In this document: one piece after another, positions 19,526-61,363 of the stretch
How the letters are laid out: each line of letters begins with the position of its first letter
How positions within the stretch are numbered: the stretch's first letter is position 1
Virus genome (UHGV): UHGV-0073881
DNA from: a virus
DNA length: 64,000 bases
Reading direction: 5' to 3' (one strand)
Notes under the pieces: generated by a model
The model's input: the letters and a program-made list of their open reading frames with translations, nothing else
Databases searched by the model: none
What the model was told of the DNA's origin: nothing
Program-made: the position numbers and the translations under genes

Positions 19526-19720
19526 ATGCCAACTATCCTAGCAATCCTCTTAAAAAACCTTGGGGCATTCTTCTGGAAGCTTGCACTTTCTCTTCTAAGT
19601 GAATACATGATTGAAAAAGCATTCTTCAGACTTGCAAGATACCTTGCGAGTAAGACTGATACGCCTATCGACGATGAATTTGTAGATAACTTGGAAAAAG
19701 CTTTTAAAGGTGAGAAATAA
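19526..19720 (+). CDS. small membrane protein (holin-like candidate)
   Basis: 64 aa with one hydrophobic helix and a charged C-terminus; located after the fibre genes. Confidence 0.35.
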   Translation: MPTILAILLKNLGAFFWKLALSLLSEYMIEKAFFRLARYLASKTDTPIDDEFVDNLEKAFKGEK

Positions 19721-20094
19721 TGAAGTGGTTAGAAGATGCTTTCAAGAATAATATCGGTGCAATTGTTGTAGGTATTTTCAGTGTAATTGGGATGTACACT
19801 ACAATGCAGGTCTCTGACGGAAAGCAAGAAGTTTCTATCAACACAAAGTTACAACAGTTGGATAGTTACTCAAAAGGTAACTATTCATCTATTCGTGATT
19901 TGCAGTCTGATATGAGACTTCTTCAGTTAGGTATGGAGAACCAGAAGGTACAGCTAGAGAACGTTAAGGGGGAAAACGCTAAGTTGACCAAAACCCTTGA
20001 TAAATTCTCAGATAGTGTGAACAACTTAGCACAGTCTGTATCAGCTTTACAAGCAATTACCGAACAAAATACACAAAGCACTAAGAAAAAATAA
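19720..20094 (+). CDS. membrane-anchored coiled-coil protein
   Basis: 124 aa; N-terminal TM segment IGAIVVGIFSVIGMY followed by a heptad-like Q/L-rich region; ATGA overlap with upstream ORF. Confidence 0.35.
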   Translation: MKWLEDAFKNNIGAIVVGIFSVIGMYTTMQVSDGKQEVSINTKLQQLDSYSKGNYSSIRDLQSDMRLLQLGMENQKVQLENVKGENAKLTKTLDKFSDSVNNLAQSVSALQAITEQNTQSTKKK

Positions 20095-53550: not shown

Positions 53551-55926
53551 ATGCGCATGGTAAATGACCACGCAGAAGTAATTAAGAGTTCAACCACGTT
53601 AGAGACTGCTCAAGCATCGATTACCATGACTCCTGAGATGTTTAGTCTTCTGAGTTCTGGTGTATACACACATAAGGAACGTGCTGTAATTCGTGAGCTT
53701 TCCTGTAATGCTGTAGATGCTCATGTAGAGGCTGGTAATTCAGATAAACCATTCAGGGTTCACTTACCAACTCGTTTTGAGCCTTACTTTGAAGTACGAG
53801 ATTTTGGAACTGGTTTAACACACGATAAAGTTATGTCTCTGTATCTCAACTACGGAGAATCAACAAAGAATGATTCCAACGATTATATTGGTGCAATGGG
53901 TATCGGTTCAAAGTCACCATTTGCAATTGCTCAATCATTTACTGTGTCAAGCTATGTAGATGGTGTTGTAAACAAATACTCTGTATATCTGGAAAATGGT
54001 ATTCCAAGGGTTACTAAACTGACAACTAACCCTACTGTTGAACCAAACGGTTTAGCTGTACGTGTGGCAGTTTCTGACCAACGTATCAGTAAGTTTGCAG
54101 ATGAAGCAAGTAACGTGTTCTCTTACTTCAAAGTAAAACCAGAGTGTAACATTGAGTATCGTGATATCCTTGCAGAGATGACTTCAATCTCTCGTGAAGC
54201 AAATGTCTACGATGCTATGAAGTACAAAGAGAACTGGCGTTCAAGCAATAACGTAGTTAACTTTAATGTGGTCATGGGTAATATTGCATACCCTGTTGAT
54301 GTACCAACTTTGTTCGAAGGTAACTATGCAGATGCTGTTCCACAGTTCTTCAGGAATGCAGTAGACCTTGTTAACATCTATATGCCAATCGGTTCAGTAG
54401 CTATTGCTGCATCTCGTGAAGCACTACAGATGAATGAGGCAACTAAGCAGAAGATTATTGATGCTGTTAACCGTATCACAGAGACTATTGTTGCAGATGT
54501 TATCAAGGCTGTTGCTGATAAGCCAACTTTGCTTGATGCTGCACAAGCTTACAGTGACATGTTTAAAGATTCTCGTGAAATCTTCATGCACGTTCAAAAC
54601 AAGCTTGAGTGGAATGGTCAGAACTTAGCAGAACTTGACAGAAAACTTAACAGTATTCGTCGTGGTCAGTTAACTGAAGCAGATGGTTCACCGTCATTTA
54701 TTAAGAATGATGCAGGTGATTTCATGCTTGACAAAGATGGTAATAAGATTCCTAACATTGGGAACCTGTATGAACCAGTAGCTTATTATAAGTTTAGTAG
54801 TCTTGAGAACCGTATTCGTGCAACTTCAGCCACTTATACACAAGACTCTTCAATGTTCAATATCTTCAGTGGTATGAGCAAAGATAAGCTGTATAACTAC
54901 ATGTTTATGATTAATGACCGTCGAAACAAAAACGGTACTGAGAAGACAACTGGTAAGAATCAGATTATCCGTGGAGCTTGCCGTGACCGTGAACTTGAAG
55001 AACCTATGTTCCGTCGCTACAATGGTATAGTTTTCATGTTTAGTTCTGAAGAACAATTGGATGACTTTATCAAGCTTCATATGCTGGATAAGAGCTTGCT
55101 TAATATTGTCACAATGTCTTCTAAAGAGCACCACTATGTTAAGCGTACCGTTGTACGTGGTGTTGTTAAGCTGTATAAAGCATTCATGGACAGTACACCA
55201 CGGATTGCCTATACAGAAGTGAAAGAGAACTTTGATGATATTGAAGAACCACAATATTACATCAAGGCACAAAGTGACACTGTTGTGGGTGATATCTTCA
55301 GTTGTTCCCCAGAGACAGCAGCAAAACTGACTGCTCAACTTATTGGACAACCTGTGTATGTCTTCCGTAAGGCTAACTGGAAGAAAGTACCTGAAGATTG
55401 GATTGAAATCAGTGACCAAGTTTTCAAAGATTTTATTGACAGTAGCCATTGGGTTGATTACAATCGCTACCTCACTCACCAGTACATGAGTGGAAGTAAA
55501 GGCACTAGCATTCTTGACTGTAATGTTATCTCAAGAAACTTCACCTTTAAGGATAAGAAGATTTCTAAAGGCTACGTGTACAGCAAAGACTTTGAGAAGG
55601 TAATGTTCCTTGAAGGGAATGAAGAAGCAATTGAGGATGTATTCGGTCGAATCGCCTACACTGCTGCACCTATTGCTTACATGTTTGAGACAAGTGTTTT
55701 AAATGACATTCGTCGTCACACAAAGAGCGGAAGCAAAATTAACAAGAGTCTGAAGAAAGCTAAGAACCATATGGAGAAGAAACTTGAAGTTTATTTCTCT
55801 AAAAGAAAGTCAAAAAACTTCTTGCTTTCACACCTTGATTGGAATAAAGTAAGCCCTGTTGAAGTGAGTAACTTCTTAGGTCACCAAGTCCGGTCAATCC
55901 CTTCAGATACAACTGCTTGGGACTAA
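53551..55926 (+). CDS. rIIA: rIIA-like protein
   Basis: 791 aa; N-terminus with GHKL-ATPase-like motifs (RAVIRELSCNAVDAH, RDFGTGL, SNDYIGAMGIGSKSPF) matching T4 rIIA as recalled; followed by an rIIB-like gene. Confidence 0.7.
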   Translation: MRMVNDHAEVIKSSTTLETAQASITMTPEMFSLLSSGVYTHKERAVIRELSCNAVDAHVEAGNSDKPFRVHLPTRFEPYFEVRDFGTGLTHDKVMSLYLNYGESTKNDSNDYIGAMGIGSKSPFAIAQSFTVSSYVDGVVNKYSVYLENGIPRVTKLTTNPTVEPNGLAVRVAVSDQRISKFADEASNVFSYFKVKPECNIEYRDILAEMTSISREANVYDAMKYKENWRSSNNVVNFNVVMGNIAYPVDVPTLFEGNYADAVPQFFRNAVDLVNIYMPIGSVAIAASREALQMNEATKQKIIDAVNRITETIVADVIKAVADKPTLLDAAQAYSDMFKDSREIFMHVQNKLEWNGQNLAELDRKLNSIRRGQLTEADGSPSFIKNDAGDFMLDKDGNKIPNIGNLYEPVAYYKFSSLENRIRATSATYTQDSSMFNIFSGMSKDKLYNYMFMINDRRNKNGTEKTTGKNQIIRGACRDRELEEPMFRRYNGIVFMFSSEEQLDDFIKLHMLDKSLLNIVTMSSKEHHYVKRTVVRGVVKLYKAFMDSTPRIAYTEVKENFDDIEEPQYYIKAQSDTVVGDIFSCSPETAAKLTAQLIGQPVYVFRKANWKKVPEDWIEISDQVFKDFIDSSHWVDYNRYLTHQYMSGSKGTSILDCNVISRNFTFKDKKISKGYVYSKDFEKVMFLEGNEEAIEDVFGRIAYTAAPIAYMFETSVLNDIRRHTKSGSKINKSLKKAKNHMEKKLEVYFSKRKSKNFLLSHLDWNKVSPVEVSNFLGHQVRSIPSDTTAWD

Positions 55927-56004: not shown

Positions 56005-57123
56005 ATGACTACTAAGACTAAAGCACAAATTGATGCAGAAATCTATGCACTGGTTCAGGAAGGTAAACTGACCAAGACTGCAATTGCAATGAAGTACAAC
56101 ACTTCAACTCGTTCTGTAGGTCGTGCTGTTGAGCGTCATGAAGCAGTTCTGGCTGGTAAGAAGGGAGATTCAAAACCTGTTAAAACTCTGAAGGGTCTTG
56201 CAAAGACTGCTAAGAAAGCTAAAAAAGCTTCTGTAGCAAAACCTACCAAAGTTGCTAAAGCAGTTGAAAAGGCTGTTAAAACAGAACCAGTAAACGCACT
56301 GCATGAGGCAATGCAGAGTAATACTCAAATTGAGTACATGATTACTGGAGACTCTGTTATTATGACGTTTGGTGCAGAATCTGAGATTGTTGAATCAACT
56401 CATCCAAACTTCACAGAAATCAAATTGGCAGTTGTAGCAGGTGAGTACAAGAAAGCTTTTGAATTGATGAATATTCGTAAAGCTATCGAAAACTTTACTC
56501 AGGGTGCTATCACAATCAAAGGTGACAATCTGTACTACGGTGCTGTCCAAATGCGTTCTACTCTGGTTGACCGTATTCTGGATATGATGAAGAATGGCGA
56601 TGCAGGATTTACCCGTCTGGTAGCGTTCTTCGAAAAACTGATGGAAAACCCATCAAAAGACTCTGTAGAACAACTGTGGGGCTTCGTATCACATCTGGAC
56701 GTAGAGATTGACGAAGAAGGTTATATCATCGGTTGGAAGAAAGTCACTAGCCGTAATGGTAAGTTGTTTGACTCTCGCACCTGCAAAGTACCTAATGATT
56801 TGGGTAACATTGTAGAGATGCCTCGTTGGATGGTTGATAACAACCGTAACGTAACTTGTTCACAAGGACTGCATGTTGGTGCTTGGGATTATGTAACAAG
56901 CTTCTCAGGTGATACGATTCTGAAAGTACGTGTTCACCCACGAGATGTTGTTTCAGTACCAACTGACTACCAAGATATGAAAATGCGAGCTTCACGCTAT
57001 GAAGTAGCAGCAATTGTAAATGGTCGTCGTGAAGTTGTGAAAGAGTGGGATGGTAAAGAAGCACTCCATGTTGTTGTCGGTACTGCTGGTGAATTGATTT
57101 CTAAGCGCAACCGTGAAATCTAA
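56005..57123 (+). CDS. rIIB: rIIB-like protein
   Basis: 372 aa directly downstream of rIIA; segments GLVDRILDMM and VHPRDVVSVPTDY match rIIB as recalled from T4. Confidence 0.6.
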   Translation: MTTKTKAQIDAEIYALVQEGKLTKTAIAMKYNTSTRSVGRAVERHEAVLAGKKGDSKPVKTLKGLAKTAKKAKKASVAKPTKVAKAVEKAVKTEPVNALHEAMQSNTQIEYMITGDSVIMTFGAESEIVESTHPNFTEIKLAVVAGEYKKAFELMNIRKAIENFTQGAITIKGDNLYYGAVQMRSTLVDRILDMMKNGDAGFTRLVAFFEKLMENPSKDSVEQLWGFVSHLDVEIDEEGYIIGWKKVTSRNGKLFDSRTCKVPNDLGNIVEMPRWMVDNNRNVTCSQGLHVGAWDYVTSFSGDTILKVRVHPRDVVSVPTDYQDMKMRASRYEVAAIVNGRREVVKEWDGKEALHVVVGTAGELISKRNREI

Positions 57124-57140
57124 TCAGTAAATTCTTAAAA

Positions 57141-57164
57141 GGGCTGCTTCGGCAGCCTTTTTTA
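57141..57164 (+). terminator. rho-independent terminator
   Basis: GGGCTGC-TTCG-GCAGCC followed by TTTTTT. Confidence 0.65.
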
Positions 57165-57224
57165 TTTGTGATTTGTGCAGAATAGTGTATAATTACCCCT
57201 ATGTTTAATAAAATAGGAGAACCA

Positions 57225-57773
57225 ATGAAGAAATTCATTTTAGGTTTGTGCTTACTTTTTACAGCACAAGTAGCTGTGGCAACTGACTGCCCTGAGTTAA
57301 CTATCAGCCAGAAAGTAAACATGCTTAAAGCTTACAACTATGGCGAAAACAAAATGGGAAAAGGTTGGGGTGTTACACTTGCAGCTATAGCCTTACAAGA
57401 GTCAGAGTTAGGTCTTAACCTAGAAAATAGAAAGACACATGATTATGGCATCTTCCAGAATCACTTGAAGACTGTTGTAAAGCGTAACAAAGTTAACCCT
57501 AATGTAGCTAGGAAGAAGCTTATCAGAGACTTTCAATATGCTGCACAGGAGACTCACAAAGAGCTTGAATTCTGGACTAAGGTACATGGTACACCAAAAG
57601 GAAAGAAGTCTCTTAAGAAGGTATTAGCCTCTTACAATGCAGGGTATAACTACAGTATTCCAAAAGCTAGACAGTACTCTAAAGATGTGTATAATAACAT
57701 GCAAGTGCTTGCTCAATGTGAGTTTGCAACAAACATTCAAAAGGTAAAACATGAACGTATTAAGTCAATCTGA
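57225..57773 (+). CDS. exported lytic transglycosylase-like protein
   Basis: start at ATG 57225 (AGGAGA 5 nt upstream); signal peptide MKKFILGLCLLFTAQVAVA; SLT-like catalytic context IALQESELG ... DYGIFQ. Confidence 0.4.
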   Translation: MKKFILGLCLLFTAQVAVATDCPELTISQKVNMLKAYNYGENKMGKGWGVTLAAIALQESELGLNLENRKTHDYGIFQNHLKTVVKRNKVNPNVARKKLIRDFQYAAQETHKELEFWTKVHGTPKGKKSLKKVLASYNAGYNYSIPKARQYSKDVYNNMQVLAQCEFATNIQKVKHERIKSI

Positions 57774-58446
57774 TAGCGTCCTGTGTCATGCTTATGATAT
57801 TCAACCACTTGACTTAGGTCTTAGTGCAGCAAGCTGGACAGACTGGATGAAGGAAGATTTTGCAGATACTGCAAGGATTGTTGAGTGTGAATTTGAAGAG
57901 TTCCATTCACCAAAAGCTTTTGTCTGTTGTATAGATGTGACCACTGGAAAGGTCGTATCTGTAAAGCGTGATAGTTTGATACTTGTCGCAAAAGAATTTG
58001 ACATTAAACGTAAGATGGTACTCACTGATATTGACGGTGTGCTAACACGATTTGATAAGTCACTGAATGCAACTTACTTGCAAGATGGTACTAAATCACA
58101 GTACACCAATCTGGTTGATTCTGTTCATGCAGAAGCTACTTATGTGTTTAACATCCTGAGAGCTATCTCAAAGAATGCTGATATTGGTGTATTAACTGCT
58201 CGTGGTGATTCACAAAGAATCCCTACTGAGTTGTTTTTAAACGAACATCTTGACAGCATGTACTCACTATTTATGCGAGGATTTGGATGCAATAAGATGA
58301 GTGCAGAAAGTTTGAAAGTTCGTATGATTCAGTCTTGCATTCTCCCATACTATGACGTAGAATGCTTTATAGAAGATACAGTAAGGAATGTGCAGAAGGT
58401 TAACAGAATCCTTCCACATATTAAAACAATGATTGTTAAACACTAA
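57751..58446 (+). CDS. hypothetical protein with HAD-like motif
   Basis: 231 aa; internal LTDIDGVLT resembles HAD phosphatase motif I (DxDGxL). Confidence 0.35.
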   Translation: MNVLSQSDSVLCHAYDIQPLDLGLSAASWTDWMKEDFADTARIVECEFEEFHSPKAFVCCIDVTTGKVVSVKRDSLILVAKEFDIKRKMVLTDIDGVLTRFDKSLNATYLQDGTKSQYTNLVDSVHAEATYVFNILRAISKNADIGVLTARGDSQRIPTELFLNEHLDSMYSLFMRGFGCNKMSAESLKVRMIQSCILPYYDVECFIEDTVRNVQKVNRILPHIKTMIVKH

Positions 58447-58458
58447 GAGAGAGAAATC

Positions 58459-58923
58459 ATGCAAAACATTATCACTGTAGCAATTGATGCAACTGGTAAC
58501 AAATCACAGGTTGTACGTAACATCATCAAGGAAAACTTTGATGGTAAAATATTTCGTGCAGTAAACGTCAAAGCTGACGGAGAAATCCGTGAATATCGTG
58601 CAATGCTTAACGTTACTAAGCATGTCAAAGGTGTTGGTTCAACCACGGCACATAAAGAAAACCTGATGACTATCTATGATATGGGTATGGCTTCAGAGTT
58701 GGGTGCTGAAGGTATTGTAAAGTCTGGTGCTCCGTACCGTTCTTTCAATCTGGAAACTGCTCTTATGCTTTCCTTTACAAGTGGTGCTAAGACTACCACG
58801 TATCTCTTTACCGATGCTGCAACGGTATCGGCTATCAAGGATAGTACTATCAAGGCTGGCGTTTCTGCTGCTGCAAAAGCGTCAACGATGGCTGCAAATG
58901 TCCTTGCTAAAGTCCTCGGTTAA
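58459..58923 (+). CDS. hypothetical protein
   Basis: 154-aa ORF followed by a terminator. Confidence 0.45.
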   Translation: MQNIITVAIDATGNKSQVVRNIIKENFDGKIFRAVNVKADGEIREYRAMLNVTKHVKGVGSTTAHKENLMTIYDMGMASELGAEGIVKSGAPYRSFNLETALMLSFTSGAKTTTYLFTDAATVSAIKDSTIKAGVSAAAKASTMAANVLAKVLG

Positions 58924-58935
58924 GGTTACTATATA

Positions 58936-58956
58936 GGCTCCTTCGGGAGCCTTTTT
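58936..58956 (+). terminator. rho-independent terminator
   Basis: GGCTCC-TTCG-GGAGCC followed by TTTTT. Confidence 0.65.
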
Positions 58957-58974
58957 AAATTTCAAGGAGTACTA

Positions 58975-59859
58975 ATGAAGCCAATGTTCAAATATCTTGG
59001 TGGTAAAACAAGAATACTAAGAGAGTATGAGCGTTTAAATGTTTTTCCAAGCCACTGTAAAAACTTCTATGATTTGTTTTCAGGTGGAGGTTCAGTCGCT
59101 ATTTGGGCTTATAACAGATACCCAGAAGCAAAAATATTTATTAATGAGATAAACAAACACATTATAGGTCTTTACACAACTTTCAGAAATGACTATGAAA
59201 ACTTCATGGAAGAATTTGAGTGCTTGTCAAAGAGGTACTTAGCATTACCTATGCAGGAAGAATATGCTGTGAAAGGTCAGCGACATAAACGTTTACGCTA
59301 TAAAATGTATTACAGTGTAAGGGAGGAACTCCTTTCACTTGGTGAAACAGGTATATATGACTATAGGTACTATGCAAGACAATTTTTCCTTCAAAAACTA
59401 AGTTTTGGTGGTGTATGGCAGACCACTAAAGAAATGAAAGGTCACTACGCAACACCTTGTGGGTATTTGCTGGAAGAAGAGATTTTCTTTACAAAAACTA
59501 AAGAGTCACTATCCGAGTTCTACAGTTTTATCACCGATAAAAGGGTGATACTAAGTAGTGAGCCTTATGATATGGTTGACATAAAACATGGAGAAGGTAC
59601 AGTTATTTACTGTGACCCCCCATATATCAACACCAACCAGAAATATGGTGCAAAGTTTGACATTGAAATGTCTGTAAAACTATGTGAAAATATGATTTCT
59701 TGGGGAGAGTTAGGTTCTAAAGTTTTGATGTCAAACTCTCAGTGGGATGGATGGACAAACTTAATCCCTGAAAATTTTAACTTGACAGAGGTTAGCCATT
59801 CATACACAATACATGCACAGAGAAGCAAGGGTGTTAGCGAAGTAATTATTCATAACTAA
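58975..59859 (+). CDS. dam: DNA N6-adenine methyltransferase (Dam family)
   Basis: 294 aa; SAM-binding FxGxG (FYDLFSGGGS) and catalytic DPPY (VIYCDPPYI). Confidence 0.8.
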   Translation: MKPMFKYLGGKTRILREYERLNVFPSHCKNFYDLFSGGGSVAIWAYNRYPEAKIFINEINKHIIGLYTTFRNDYENFMEEFECLSKRYLALPMQEEYAVKGQRHKRLRYKMYYSVREELLSLGETGIYDYRYYARQFFLQKLSFGGVWQTTKEMKGHYATPCGYLLEEEIFFTKTKESLSEFYSFITDKRVILSSEPYDMVDIKHGEGTVIYCDPPYINTNQKYGAKFDIEMSVKLCENMISWGELGSKVLMSNSQWDGWTNLIPENFNLTEVSHSYTIHAQRSKGVSEVIIHN

Positions 59860-59870
59860 GGTATCAAACC

Positions 59871-60683
59871 ATGACAAACAGTGTAAATGTAGCTCTAAAC
59901 GGTAAGATTGTTAAAATGCAGACTAAGATTATCAGCGTAGAAGACTTTATTAATGAGAAACGCTACAAGGAAAATCCACGTCAACGAAATACATTAAAAC
60001 GACTTAAGAGCAAACACCTTAATGGTGATGTATCACCAGACCAAACAGTTGTCCATATTGCTAAATTCGGTAGTTCACTGTTTATTATTGACGGCCACTC
60101 ACGCAGAGAGGCATGGAAAGTTGGGAACCTTACACGACCAGAAGGATTGATTGCAGTTATATACCATGTAAACTCTATACTAGATGTTACAGATTTGTAC
60201 ACTCACTTTGACTCTGAGTTAGCAAGAGAGAAACCTTCAGAAGTCTATTACGGAAACATGAAGATGATTTCCTTCAATCCAAAGTCAGAGTTGATGAAAG
60301 CATCTTGGGCTACTGCTATTAAGTATGTTGCTGCATACTATGGGGTGCAACAGGTTTCTAACACTGAAACAGTCAATCACCTTGATGACTTTAAAAATGA
60401 GATGGAGCAAATTGACTCTCTTGAAGTACAGCTCAAAGGTGTAGTAAACGCAAAACGTAAGTATTCCTCTGGTATTCGTGCAGCAATGCTAATTACATTA
60501 CGGCTATATGGTGATGCTGCATTCTCCTTCTGGGAGGACTATAATGACTACTGCGAAGGTATGTCTAACAAATATGTTACAGAGGCATACCAACTAGCAT
60601 TGCAAGCTGGTCGTGGAGCACAGGCTGACAAGCTATTGATGAATCAAGTAATTTCACTTGTCAACTACTTCAGCCAAGAGTAG
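59871..60683 (+). CDS. ParB-like nuclease-domain protein
   Basis: 270 aa; segment FIIDGHSRREAWKVG matches the ParB/Srx N-terminal box (hydrophobic-x-DG-x-x-RR-x-A); directly downstream of dam. Confidence 0.45.
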   Translation: MTNSVNVALNGKIVKMQTKIISVEDFINEKRYKENPRQRNTLKRLKSKHLNGDVSPDQTVVHIAKFGSSLFIIDGHSRREAWKVGNLTRPEGLIAVIYHVNSILDVTDLYTHFDSELAREKPSEVYYGNMKMISFNPKSELMKASWATAIKYVAAYYGVQQVSNTETVNHLDDFKNEMEQIDSLEVQLKGVVNAKRKYSSGIRAAMLITLRLYGDAAFSFWEDYNDYCEGMSNKYVTEAYQLALQAGRGAQADKLLMNQVISLVNYFSQE

Positions 60684-60852: not shown

Positions 60853-61200
60853 ATGACATTCAAAGAATTTTGTCAAGCAGCTTTTGTAATCATGTTTTTG
60901 TTAGGTGTAGGTGCTTGGGGTGGCTATACTTACAAGACTAGCCAAGTTAACGAGAAAGAGTTGACTAATCAGAAGCTTGTTAGTGTTGCTAAGGATGCTT
61001 ACCAAGAAGGTTTAGCAAATCTTAGCGCTAATTACAAAAATGATTTGAAAGATGTGCTTGCTAAAAACAAACACACAAAAGAGGTATTGACCTATGAAAA
61101 AACTAAGACAGAGTTTTATAATATTTGTGCTACTGAGCCTTATGTCAGGGTGTTCAACCTACAAAGTGAACAATACCTTCAAAAACTCCCAAGTAAGTGA
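60853..61200 (+). CDS. i-spanin-like protein (inner-membrane anchored)
   Basis: 115 aa; N-terminal TM helix AAFVIMFLLGVGAWGG, then charged coiled-coil-like periplasmic domain; its 3' end contains the start of an out-of-frame lipoprotein ORF. Confidence 0.45.
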   Translation: MTFKEFCQAAFVIMFLLGVGAWGGYTYKTSQVNEKELTNQKLVSVAKDAYQEGLANLSANYKNDLKDVLAKNKHTKEVLTYEKTKTEFYNICATEPYVRVFNLQSEQYLQKLPSK

Positions 61201-61363
61201 GAGTGACAAGTACACTCAGGAAGAGACTAGGTACACTGTCAAGGGTACTAAAGGTGAAGACCTTGCTAGTGCTATGGAGTTTTACCGTGATGGATTCTAT
61301 GAATGTACTATCAAGGCAAACAATTTGATTGATATGATTTTGTTAGGGAATAAGCAGCAATGA
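61094..61363 (+). CDS. o-spanin-like lipoprotein
   Basis: 89 aa; signal peptide with lipobox-like LMSGC; start embedded in the upstream gene in another frame with GAGG 9 nt upstream (Rz/Rz1-type overlap). Confidence 0.45.
   Translation: MKKLRQSFIIFVLLSLMSGCSTYKVNNTFKNSQVSESDKYTQEETRYTVKGTKGEDLASAMEFYRDGFYECTIKANNLIDMILLGNKQQ

Follow-up and report, generated by a model that had tools for sequence, protein, structure and literature searches.

Directly after rIIB in the UHGV virus genome UHGV-0073881 lies a gene whose product looks both exported and able to cut peptidoglycan, which raises the question of whose wall such an enzyme would cut and for what purpose. We addressed this question in one 64,000-nucleotide stretch of that genome, referred to here as the window. 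A preliminary description of the locus, made from the sequence alone, had read the gene as an exported SLT-like peptidoglycan hydrolase with its own promoter, and had proposed that it could be a Sec-dependent endolysin, act at entry, or act on the cell wall of the infected cell. We consider it probable that the open reading frame (ORF) at 57225-57773 encodes a stand-alone GH23/SLT lytic transglycosylase of the Vs.1 family, periplasmic and accessory, and not the main lysis enzyme. The earlier observation is confirmed, in that the GH23 fold, a match to EtgA and the conserved -10 hexamer and -35 TTG all agree with a predicted exported SLT-like enzyme under its own promoter. The earlier interpretation holds in part: with the endolysin and entry readings unsupported, action on the wall of the infected cell is the option left. 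The coding sequence, its export signal and its active-site codons are:

57225-57773, plus strand: Vs.1-family (phrog_600) coding sequence of a predicted exported SLT/GH23 lytic transglycosylase, 182 amino acids plus stop
57225-57281, plus strand: predicted Sec signal peptide, residues 1-19 (MKKFILGLCLLFTAQVAVA), with a signal peptidase I site between A-V-A and T-D
57399-57404, plus strand: codons of the catalytic Glu59-Ser60 (SLT motif I), E in 166/166 and S in 162/166 family members
57447-57458, plus strand: codons of G75-I-F-Q78 (SLT motif II, GLMQ-like), G in 156/166 and Q or H at position 78 in 158/166
57630-57647, plus strand: codons of S136-Y-N-A-G-Y141 (SLT motif III, AYNxG-like), Y137 in 166/166, N138 in 156/166 and G140 in 166/166

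What the analysis itself established is how the gene is built, that it is under purifying selection, which fold and family its product has, that its motifs are conserved, and where it sits in the genome. Pairwise dN/dS against six orthologues was 0.10-0.17, and we therefore regard the ORF as a real gene under purifying selection. Its product matches phrog_600, listed under 'unknown function' in PHROGs, over residues 1-170 (E 1e-56), and aligns over its full length with Tequatrovirus Vs.1, the protein encoded between regB and vs (32% identity, BLASTP E 2e-17). The full-length profile match, together with the match to T4-type Vs.1, places the protein in phrog_600, and its layout is of the Vs.1 type: about 160-200 amino acids, with a predicted export signal at the N-terminus and one SLT-like domain after it. 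Its direct orthologues are Felix O1 gene 3 (Felix01p003) and SUSP1 gp083 (AVU07_agp083); T4 vs.1 and AVU07_agp083 (= Felix01p003) are both listed as phrog_600 with unknown function in a published supplement (Adler et al. 2025, PMC11879866). With T4 Vs.1 (T4p112, UniProt P13311) it shares the PHROG, a length of about 180 amino acids, a signal-peptide-like N-terminus and the ES, GxFQ and SYNxG motifs, and the T4 and Felix O1-like genes both lie in early/middle regions. The two differ in their neighbours, which are regB and vs in T4 but rIIB and a HAD phosphatase gene here, and T4-like members lack the Cys22/Cys165 pair and the Asp73 of the Ounavirinae clade.

To gauge how widely the family extends, we searched phage, plasmid and general protein collections. 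Relatives were found by tblastn in 2039 phage records, several of the T4-like ones annotated 'vs.1', while none of 72,556 plasmids gave a tblastn match at E <= 0.01, which ruled out a plasmid-borne specialised transglycosylase as a close relative. A profile search of 1.84 billion representatives matched 1186 clusters at 50% identity (E <= 1e-3), mostly of 160-200 amino acids; because merely 1186 clusters were matched, we treat Vs.1 as a distinct small subfamily and not as the generic SLT superfamily. The sequence feature itself is ordinary, in that it belongs to an already catalogued family with a published predicted activity. The SLT similarity of T4 Vs.1 was published no later than 2006, and Nolan et al. 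is one published source on the family. Annotations of the orthologues vary among 'endoribonuclease', 'RegB domain-containing', 'putative lysin', 'transglycosylase' and 'hypothetical' (MN850587 mistaenkt_28, MN895438 teqdroes_253, KF669654). The RegB or endoribonuclease label is without Pfam support, and these names probably spread from the neighbouring regB of T4-like phages; the label 'lysin', where endolysin is meant, is probably wrong. Public annotations are thereby corrected on both counts.

We next turned to the fold, for which profile and structure searches gave evidence of different strength. Against Pfam SLT (PF01464) the protein scored 19.5 bits (E 7e-4), just short of the gathering threshold of 21.3, in the kind of profile search that the preliminary description had proposed. 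At the level of the family, more distant members pass the Pfam cutoff (T4-like Vs.1 with 24.5 bits, others with 29.2 and 45.2), and the family profile found as its best solved relative EtgA, a type III secretion transglycosylase (E 3e-4), whose ES, GIMQ and YNAGY align with E59-S60, G75-I-F-Q78 and Y137-N-A-G-Y141. An AlphaFold2 model built with 18 homologues (mean pLDDT 84.7) matched GH23 proteins as well. Foldseek against PDB agreed with the SLT/GH23 assignment, the best matches in BFVD were phage proteins named 'Transglycosylase SLT domain-containing protein' (TM 0.72-0.75), and the fold searches returned GH23 proteins only. The predicted structure thus has the lysozyme-like GH23 fold, as had been anticipated. 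A direct PDB sequence search (E 1.8) and an NCBIfam search gave no useful match. The family profile also matched PRP4 kinases through its C-terminal helices (E ~1e-3), and we discarded these matches as low-complexity or helical noise because the fold searches gave GH23 proteins only.

Within this fold, the ES...GxFQ context noted earlier corresponds to E59-S60 and G75-I-F-Q78 and is completed by a third motif, S136-Y-N-A-G-Y141, so that all three SLT motifs are present in order. Outside the motifs, Y151 is invariant (166/166), and G63 (163/166) and the family-specific Gln29 (164/166) are nearly so. In the family alignment, the invariance of E59, Y137, G140 and Y151 marks a conserved active site. 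A protein that merely retains an SLT-like fold and serves as a non-catalytic peptidoglycan binder or decoy would be in keeping with the sub-threshold Pfam score, but is very hard to credit: the catalytic Glu is found in 166/166 members, and there is hardly any variation in the ES, GxxQ/H and YNxG motifs or at Tyr151, as expected where an active site is conserved. From the family-1 motifs, lytic transglycosylase chemistry is likely.

The likeness to EtgA, which belongs to the type III system of enteropathogenic Escherichia coli, is one of architecture and sequence only. Here the neighbouring genes encode rIIB, a HAD phosphatase and a phrog_2267 protein, with no secretion machine and no partner protein known, and the N-terminal helix carries the family-specific, near-invariant Gln29. 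Other specialised periplasmic lytic transglycosylases of secretion machines are IagB, IpgF, VirB1 and P19. Compared with Slt70, MltC, MltD, MltE and MltF, the ORF product is far smaller and has none of the superhelical, LysM or ABC-type extra domains, and it differs from the bacterial family-1 enzymes (PF01464, CAZy GH23) in lacking a lipoprotein anchor.

Where such an enzyme acts depends on its N-terminus, which consists of MKK, a 13-residue Leu/Phe/Ile-rich core (FILGLCLLFTAQV; maximum Kyte-Doolittle value 2.59 over 11 residues) and A-V-A before T-D. We called a signal peptide from heuristics (n, h and c regions and the -3/-1 rule) together with conservation, in agreement with the cleavable-looking signal peptide described before. 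Of 164 family members, 157 have a hydrophobic segment at the N-terminus, T4-like and Vi01 proteins included, and small residues at -3 and -1 (A-x-A-type sites) recur in the orthologues read. A lipoprotein was rejected: the LGLC at residues 6-9 is no lipobox and lies too near the N-terminus, and the o-spanin encoded in the window carries a proper LMSGC. The predicted mature protein has a mass of 18.7 kDa and a pI of 9.8. Cys22 lies three residues past the predicted cleavage site and Cys165 lies 17 from the C-terminus; both positions are Cys in 84 members, neither is in 68, and one only is in 12. Since the two cysteines co-occur, a disulfide and hence an oxidising periplasmic location are suggested, and a Cys22-Cys165 bond is probably formed.

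The predicted export also bears on whether the protein could act at entry, as a virion-associated enzyme that opens peptidoglycan for the tail tube in the manner of T7 gp16, PRD1 P7 or T4 gp5. Virion-borne SLT domains are common in phages, and the weaker structural matches included PRD1 P7, T7 gp16 and tape-measure SLT domains. The conserved Sec-type signal peptide, however, would direct the protein out of the cytoplasm, where virions are assembled, and into the periplasm of the producing cell. The gene, moreover, lies in an early/middle region outside the structural module, and its product is a stand-alone 18.7-kDa domain without fusion to a tail or core protein. The 17 proteins identified in Felix O1 virions do not include gp3 (Whichard et al. 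2010, PMC3185647). Because the protein is predicted to be exported and its orthologue is absent from the Felix O1 virion proteome, we regard action at entry as highly improbable.

An exported muralytic enzyme might still be the endolysin. A Sec-dependent or signal-arrest-release (SAR) endolysin would be exported early, remain inactive in the energised envelope and lyse the cell once a holin or pinholin collapses the membrane potential. Such a role would fit the combination of a signal-peptide-like N-terminus with a muralytic fold and the GenBank/UniRef records that name orthologues 'putative lysin' or 'Lysin'. Expression in Felix O1 would fit too, since transcription of ORF3, like that of the endolysin gene 35, peaks at 25 min (Whichard et al. 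2010, PMC3185647). Relatives, however, encode a separate, soluble GH24 endolysin (Phage_lysozyme, 132 bits), which in the orthologue read is without a signal sequence. In the relative pEC-M719-6WT.1 this gene lies at OQ845957 75111-75575 (phrog_7), and it is also present in phage mistaenkt; the corresponding locus falls beyond the 64-kb window, and its presence here is deduced from the relative, which is 95.5% identical. Felix O1 has gp35 as its lysin, a protein that carries a Phage_lysozyme domain (Whichard et al. 2010, PMC3185647). As for the window, it encodes an annotated holin and an Rz/Rz1-type spanin pair:

19720-20091: 'holin' homologue, about 37 kb from the SLT gene, 92% identity to a gene annotated holin in relatives
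60853-61200: i-spanin, phrog_1152
61094-61363: o-spanin, overlapping the i-spanin gene, lipobox LMSGC

The 'holin' belongs to phrog_4038, of unknown function in PHROGs, and takes its label from annotation and a single N-terminal hydrophobic segment. The spanin genes lie about 3 kb downstream of the SLT gene, past a terminator and an inserted cassette. The pair sits in the early/middle region beside a polynucleotide kinase (PNK)-like gene, an arrangement that we take to recall T4 pseT / pseT.2 / pseT.3.

Expression and fitness data from relatives also speak against an endolysin. T4 vs.1 RNA is early and its protein middle (Wolfram-Schauerte et al. 2022, PMC9697503, supplement). In SUSP1, knocking down the orthologue was scored 'Not Fit' (1.02, p 0.28), that is, without a significant fitness effect, and CRISPRi-ART knock-down of T4 vs.1 was scored 'Semi-Fit' (0.81, p 0.099) (Adler et al. 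2025, PMC11879866). The hydrophobic core is rich in Leu, Phe and Ile and ends in an A-x-A site, as opposed to the Gly/Ala-rich SAR domains, and in no relative examined does the SLT gene lie inside a lysis cassette. Lysis by T4 depends on the endolysin gene e although Vs.1 is present. The known signal-peptide and SAR endolysins (Lys44 of phage fOg44, P1 Lyz, R of phage 21) are each the sole endolysin and are encoded beside a holin. They resemble the protein studied here in being phage-encoded exported muralytic enzymes, export being a prediction in our case. They differ from it on three counts: here a GH24 endolysin is encoded separately, SUSP1 and T4 can do entirely or almost without the gene, and its locus is outside any lysis cassette. 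The product would thus be neither the sole nor a required lysis enzyme, and its gene is not linked to a holin/spanin cassette. Because of the separate GH24 endolysin, the holin and spanins, and the weak or absent knock-down phenotypes, we consider a primary endolysin role quite unlikely.

We then examined how the gene would be expressed. Between rIIB and the start codon lie three conserved elements:

57137-57168, plus strand: Rho-independent terminator of the rIIA-rIIB unit, GGGCTGC-TTCG-GCAGCC, extended by A/T pairs, then a T-run
57166-57193, plus strand: sigma-70-type promoter-like site, -35 TTGTGA (57166-57171), 16-nt spacer, -10 TATAAT (57188-57193)
57215-57219, plus strand: ribosome-binding site AGGAG, 5 nt before the ATG at 57225, kept in 8 relatives

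The strong terminator reported upstream of the gene held up on folding: its stem (57137-57162) has 11 pairs, 5 of them GC, at -16 kcal/mol (z = -3.8), and 0 of 200 shuffles fold as well. It is kept in 8 Ounavirinae and equals Felix O1 terminator t2. The promoter-like site matches the consensus at 10 of 12 positions. Of the -10-like element described before, one part stands and one does not. The octamer TGTATAAT occurs 4 times in the window against 3.6 expected, and since it is not over-represented we place it, taken alone, at chance level; the TATAAT hexamer, in contrast, is invariant in 8 Ounavirinae phages, as is the TTG of the -35 element, while flanking bases vary. The position of the site and the invariance of these elements argue that the candidate promoter is functional, and a predicted sigma-70-like promoter of the gene's own is thus supported. 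A canonical extended -10 (TGnTATAAT) was rejected, as the sequence reads GTG-TATAAT. The ORF listing gives 57201-57773, but the conserved start is the ATG at 57225; the orthologues all begin with MKKF or MKKL, and the AGGAG is annotated as a ribosome-binding site in phage Mijalis. We rejected the ATG at 57201 because it lacks a ribosome-binding site, overlaps the promoter region (8 nt past the -10 hexamer) and is not conserved, being ACG in phages SP4 and BPS17W1. A second sigma-70-like site (57668-57695, TAGACA-16-TATAAT, 11/12 matches) falls within the SLT ORF near its 3' end, 56 nt upstream of where the HAD phosphatase gene begins, and could serve as an internal promoter or simply reflect the codons of the conserved VYNN.

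These observations suggest the following course of events. Host RNA polymerase would initiate at the sigma-70-like promoter just past the rIIB terminator, and the transcript would span the SLT gene, the overlapping HAD phosphatase gene and a third gene, as far as the terminator at 58935-58952:

57751-58446, plus strand: HAD phosphatase-type 'polynucleotide kinase', phrog_3970, 23-nt overlap with the SLT ORF
58459-58923, plus strand: third gene of the putative transcription unit, phrog_2267, no assigned function
58935-58958, plus strand: terminator closing the putative three-gene unit, AGGCTCC-TTCG-GGAGCCT (58935-58952) plus a T-run, equal to Felix O1 t5

The precursor would pass through Sec, and signal peptidase I would cleave it after Ala19, releasing a basic, soluble periplasmic enzyme (18.7 kDa, pI ~9.8), probably stabilised by a Cys22-Cys165 disulfide. 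With Glu59 as sole acid/base catalyst, the enzyme would cleave MurNAc-GlcNAc bonds in the sacculus of the infected cell itself, 1,6-anhydro-MurNAc ends being the most likely product. The role would be an accessory one, remodelling or pre-weakening the wall during infection, with bulk lysis left to the separate cytoplasmic GH24 endolysin together with holin and spanins. Within this scheme we infer that the precursor is exported and cleaved, that the disulfide forms, that the chemistry is that of a lytic transglycosylase and not of a hydrolase, and what the enzyme does physiologically.

Several points weigh against an accessory lytic transglycosylase. In addition to the Pfam SLT score below its cutoff, the signal peptide call is heuristic, and the N-terminus may be an uncleaved SAR-type anchor. 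Lytic transglycosylase and lysozyme chemistry are not separable from sequence, and Asp73, found in the Ounavirinae clade and also in EtgA where most family members have Ser, could confer hydrolase-like features. 'Accessory wall remodelling' is a default role, chosen as the simplest, and a literature search found no experimental study on the function of Vs.1 or Felix O1 gp3. Finally, reverse transcription PCR in Felix O1 put ORF3 and the endolysin gene 35 in the same 25-min class, and timing therefore does not separate the two in this lineage (PMC3185647).

Having considered the gene itself, we asked whether its place in the genome carries further information. Over 56900-58500, Escherichia phage pEC-M719-6WT.1 is 95.5% identical, and Suspvirus, Mooglevirus and Felixounavirus phages are ~80% identical; from these nucleotide identities, the window is part of a Felix O1-like (Ounavirinae) myovirus genome of ~86 kb. 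Immediately upstream lie the rII genes:

53551-55926, upstream: rIIA, phrog_612, E 3e-173
56005-57123, upstream: rIIB, phrog_609, E 1e-86

The rIIA product has a GHKL-type ATPase domain at residues 46-150 (Pfam HATPase_c_3, 27.7 bits, above cutoff). The position beside rIIA/rIIB had been considered notable. The gene directly follows rIIB in Felixounavirus, Suspvirus and Mooglevirus, whereas three genes intervene between rIIB and the Vs.1-like gene in Kolesnikvirus. In T4-like phages the Vs.1 gene is flanked by regB and vs; in Slopekvirus KP27 an annotated middle promoter precedes it and a terminator follows; and the neighbourhoods in Vi01, Acinetobacter and Aeromonas phages each differ again. 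Because a strong terminator and a promoter separate the genes, and because the contexts differ among lineages, we rejected a functional link to rII and regard the adjacency to rIIB as lineage-specific synteny, no evidence of a shared function.

The neighbour that is in fact conserved is the downstream HAD phosphatase gene: the order Vs.1-like gene followed by HAD phosphatase gene is kept in relatives down to 40% identity, for which shared ancestry could suffice. The 'polynucleotide kinase' at 57751-58446 has the HAD phosphatase part only (DIDGV motif; Pfam HAD_PNKP below threshold at 17.9 bits), and its product gave no Pfam match to a kinase domain. Farther downstream, between the terminator at 58935-58952 and the spanin genes, a ~1.8-kb cassette (58975-60683) encodes a D12-class Dam-type DNA adenine methyltransferase (Pfam 81 bits) and a phrog_2615 protein. 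Absent from pEC-M719-6WT.1 and covered at >=80% in only 14 of 221 matching phage records, at ~90% identity, it resembles a variable accessory cassette. A search for structured RNA in 56800-59100 gave nothing in Rfam at E <= 0.1, and the short minus-strand antisense ORFs at 57101-57322, 57420-57587 and 57624-57752 were taken as chance ORFs.

The surroundings of the gene also bear on a role in conflict, in which the periplasmic protein, by altering the wall or freeing anhydro-muropeptides, would block superinfecting phages, counter an envelope-linked host defence, or tune lysis timing or inhibition. T4 vs.1 is one of five Semi-Fit genes without known function, which in the authors' view may point to defence inhibition (Adler et al. 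2025). The surroundings are rich in host-interaction genes, with rIIA/rIIB here and rI ~2.4 kb off in T4-like phages and ~1 kb off in an Acinetobacter phage, and the very wide conservation (2039 phage records) despite laboratory dispensability is typical of conditionally useful genes. Against this, the neighbourhoods differ among phage families, those compared held no partner gene conserved across them, and a plain wall-remodelling role predicts invariant catalytic residues equally well. We therefore consider a conflict role unlikely, though worth keeping in view.

With an accessory periplasmic lytic transglycosylase as the preferred reading, Vs.1 is among the most widely conserved phage proteins lacking an assigned physiological role (2039 records, 1186 clusters), and it presents a puzzle: its active site is invariant, its export is predicted and its fitness effect in T4 is mild, so that the purpose of a second exported wall-cutting enzyme is in question. 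An unlikely but more far-reaching answer is that Vs.1 edits the peptidoglycan of the infected cell for a purpose other than lysis, such as control of lysis timing or inhibition, widening the wall mesh to let spanin or holin-antiholin complexes form in the periplasm, or overcoming or excluding competitors by way of altered muropeptides or wall. If true, such a non-lysis role would explain why the gene is retained in more than 2000 sequenced T4-like, Vi01-like and Felix O1-like phages despite being nearly dispensable in the laboratory.

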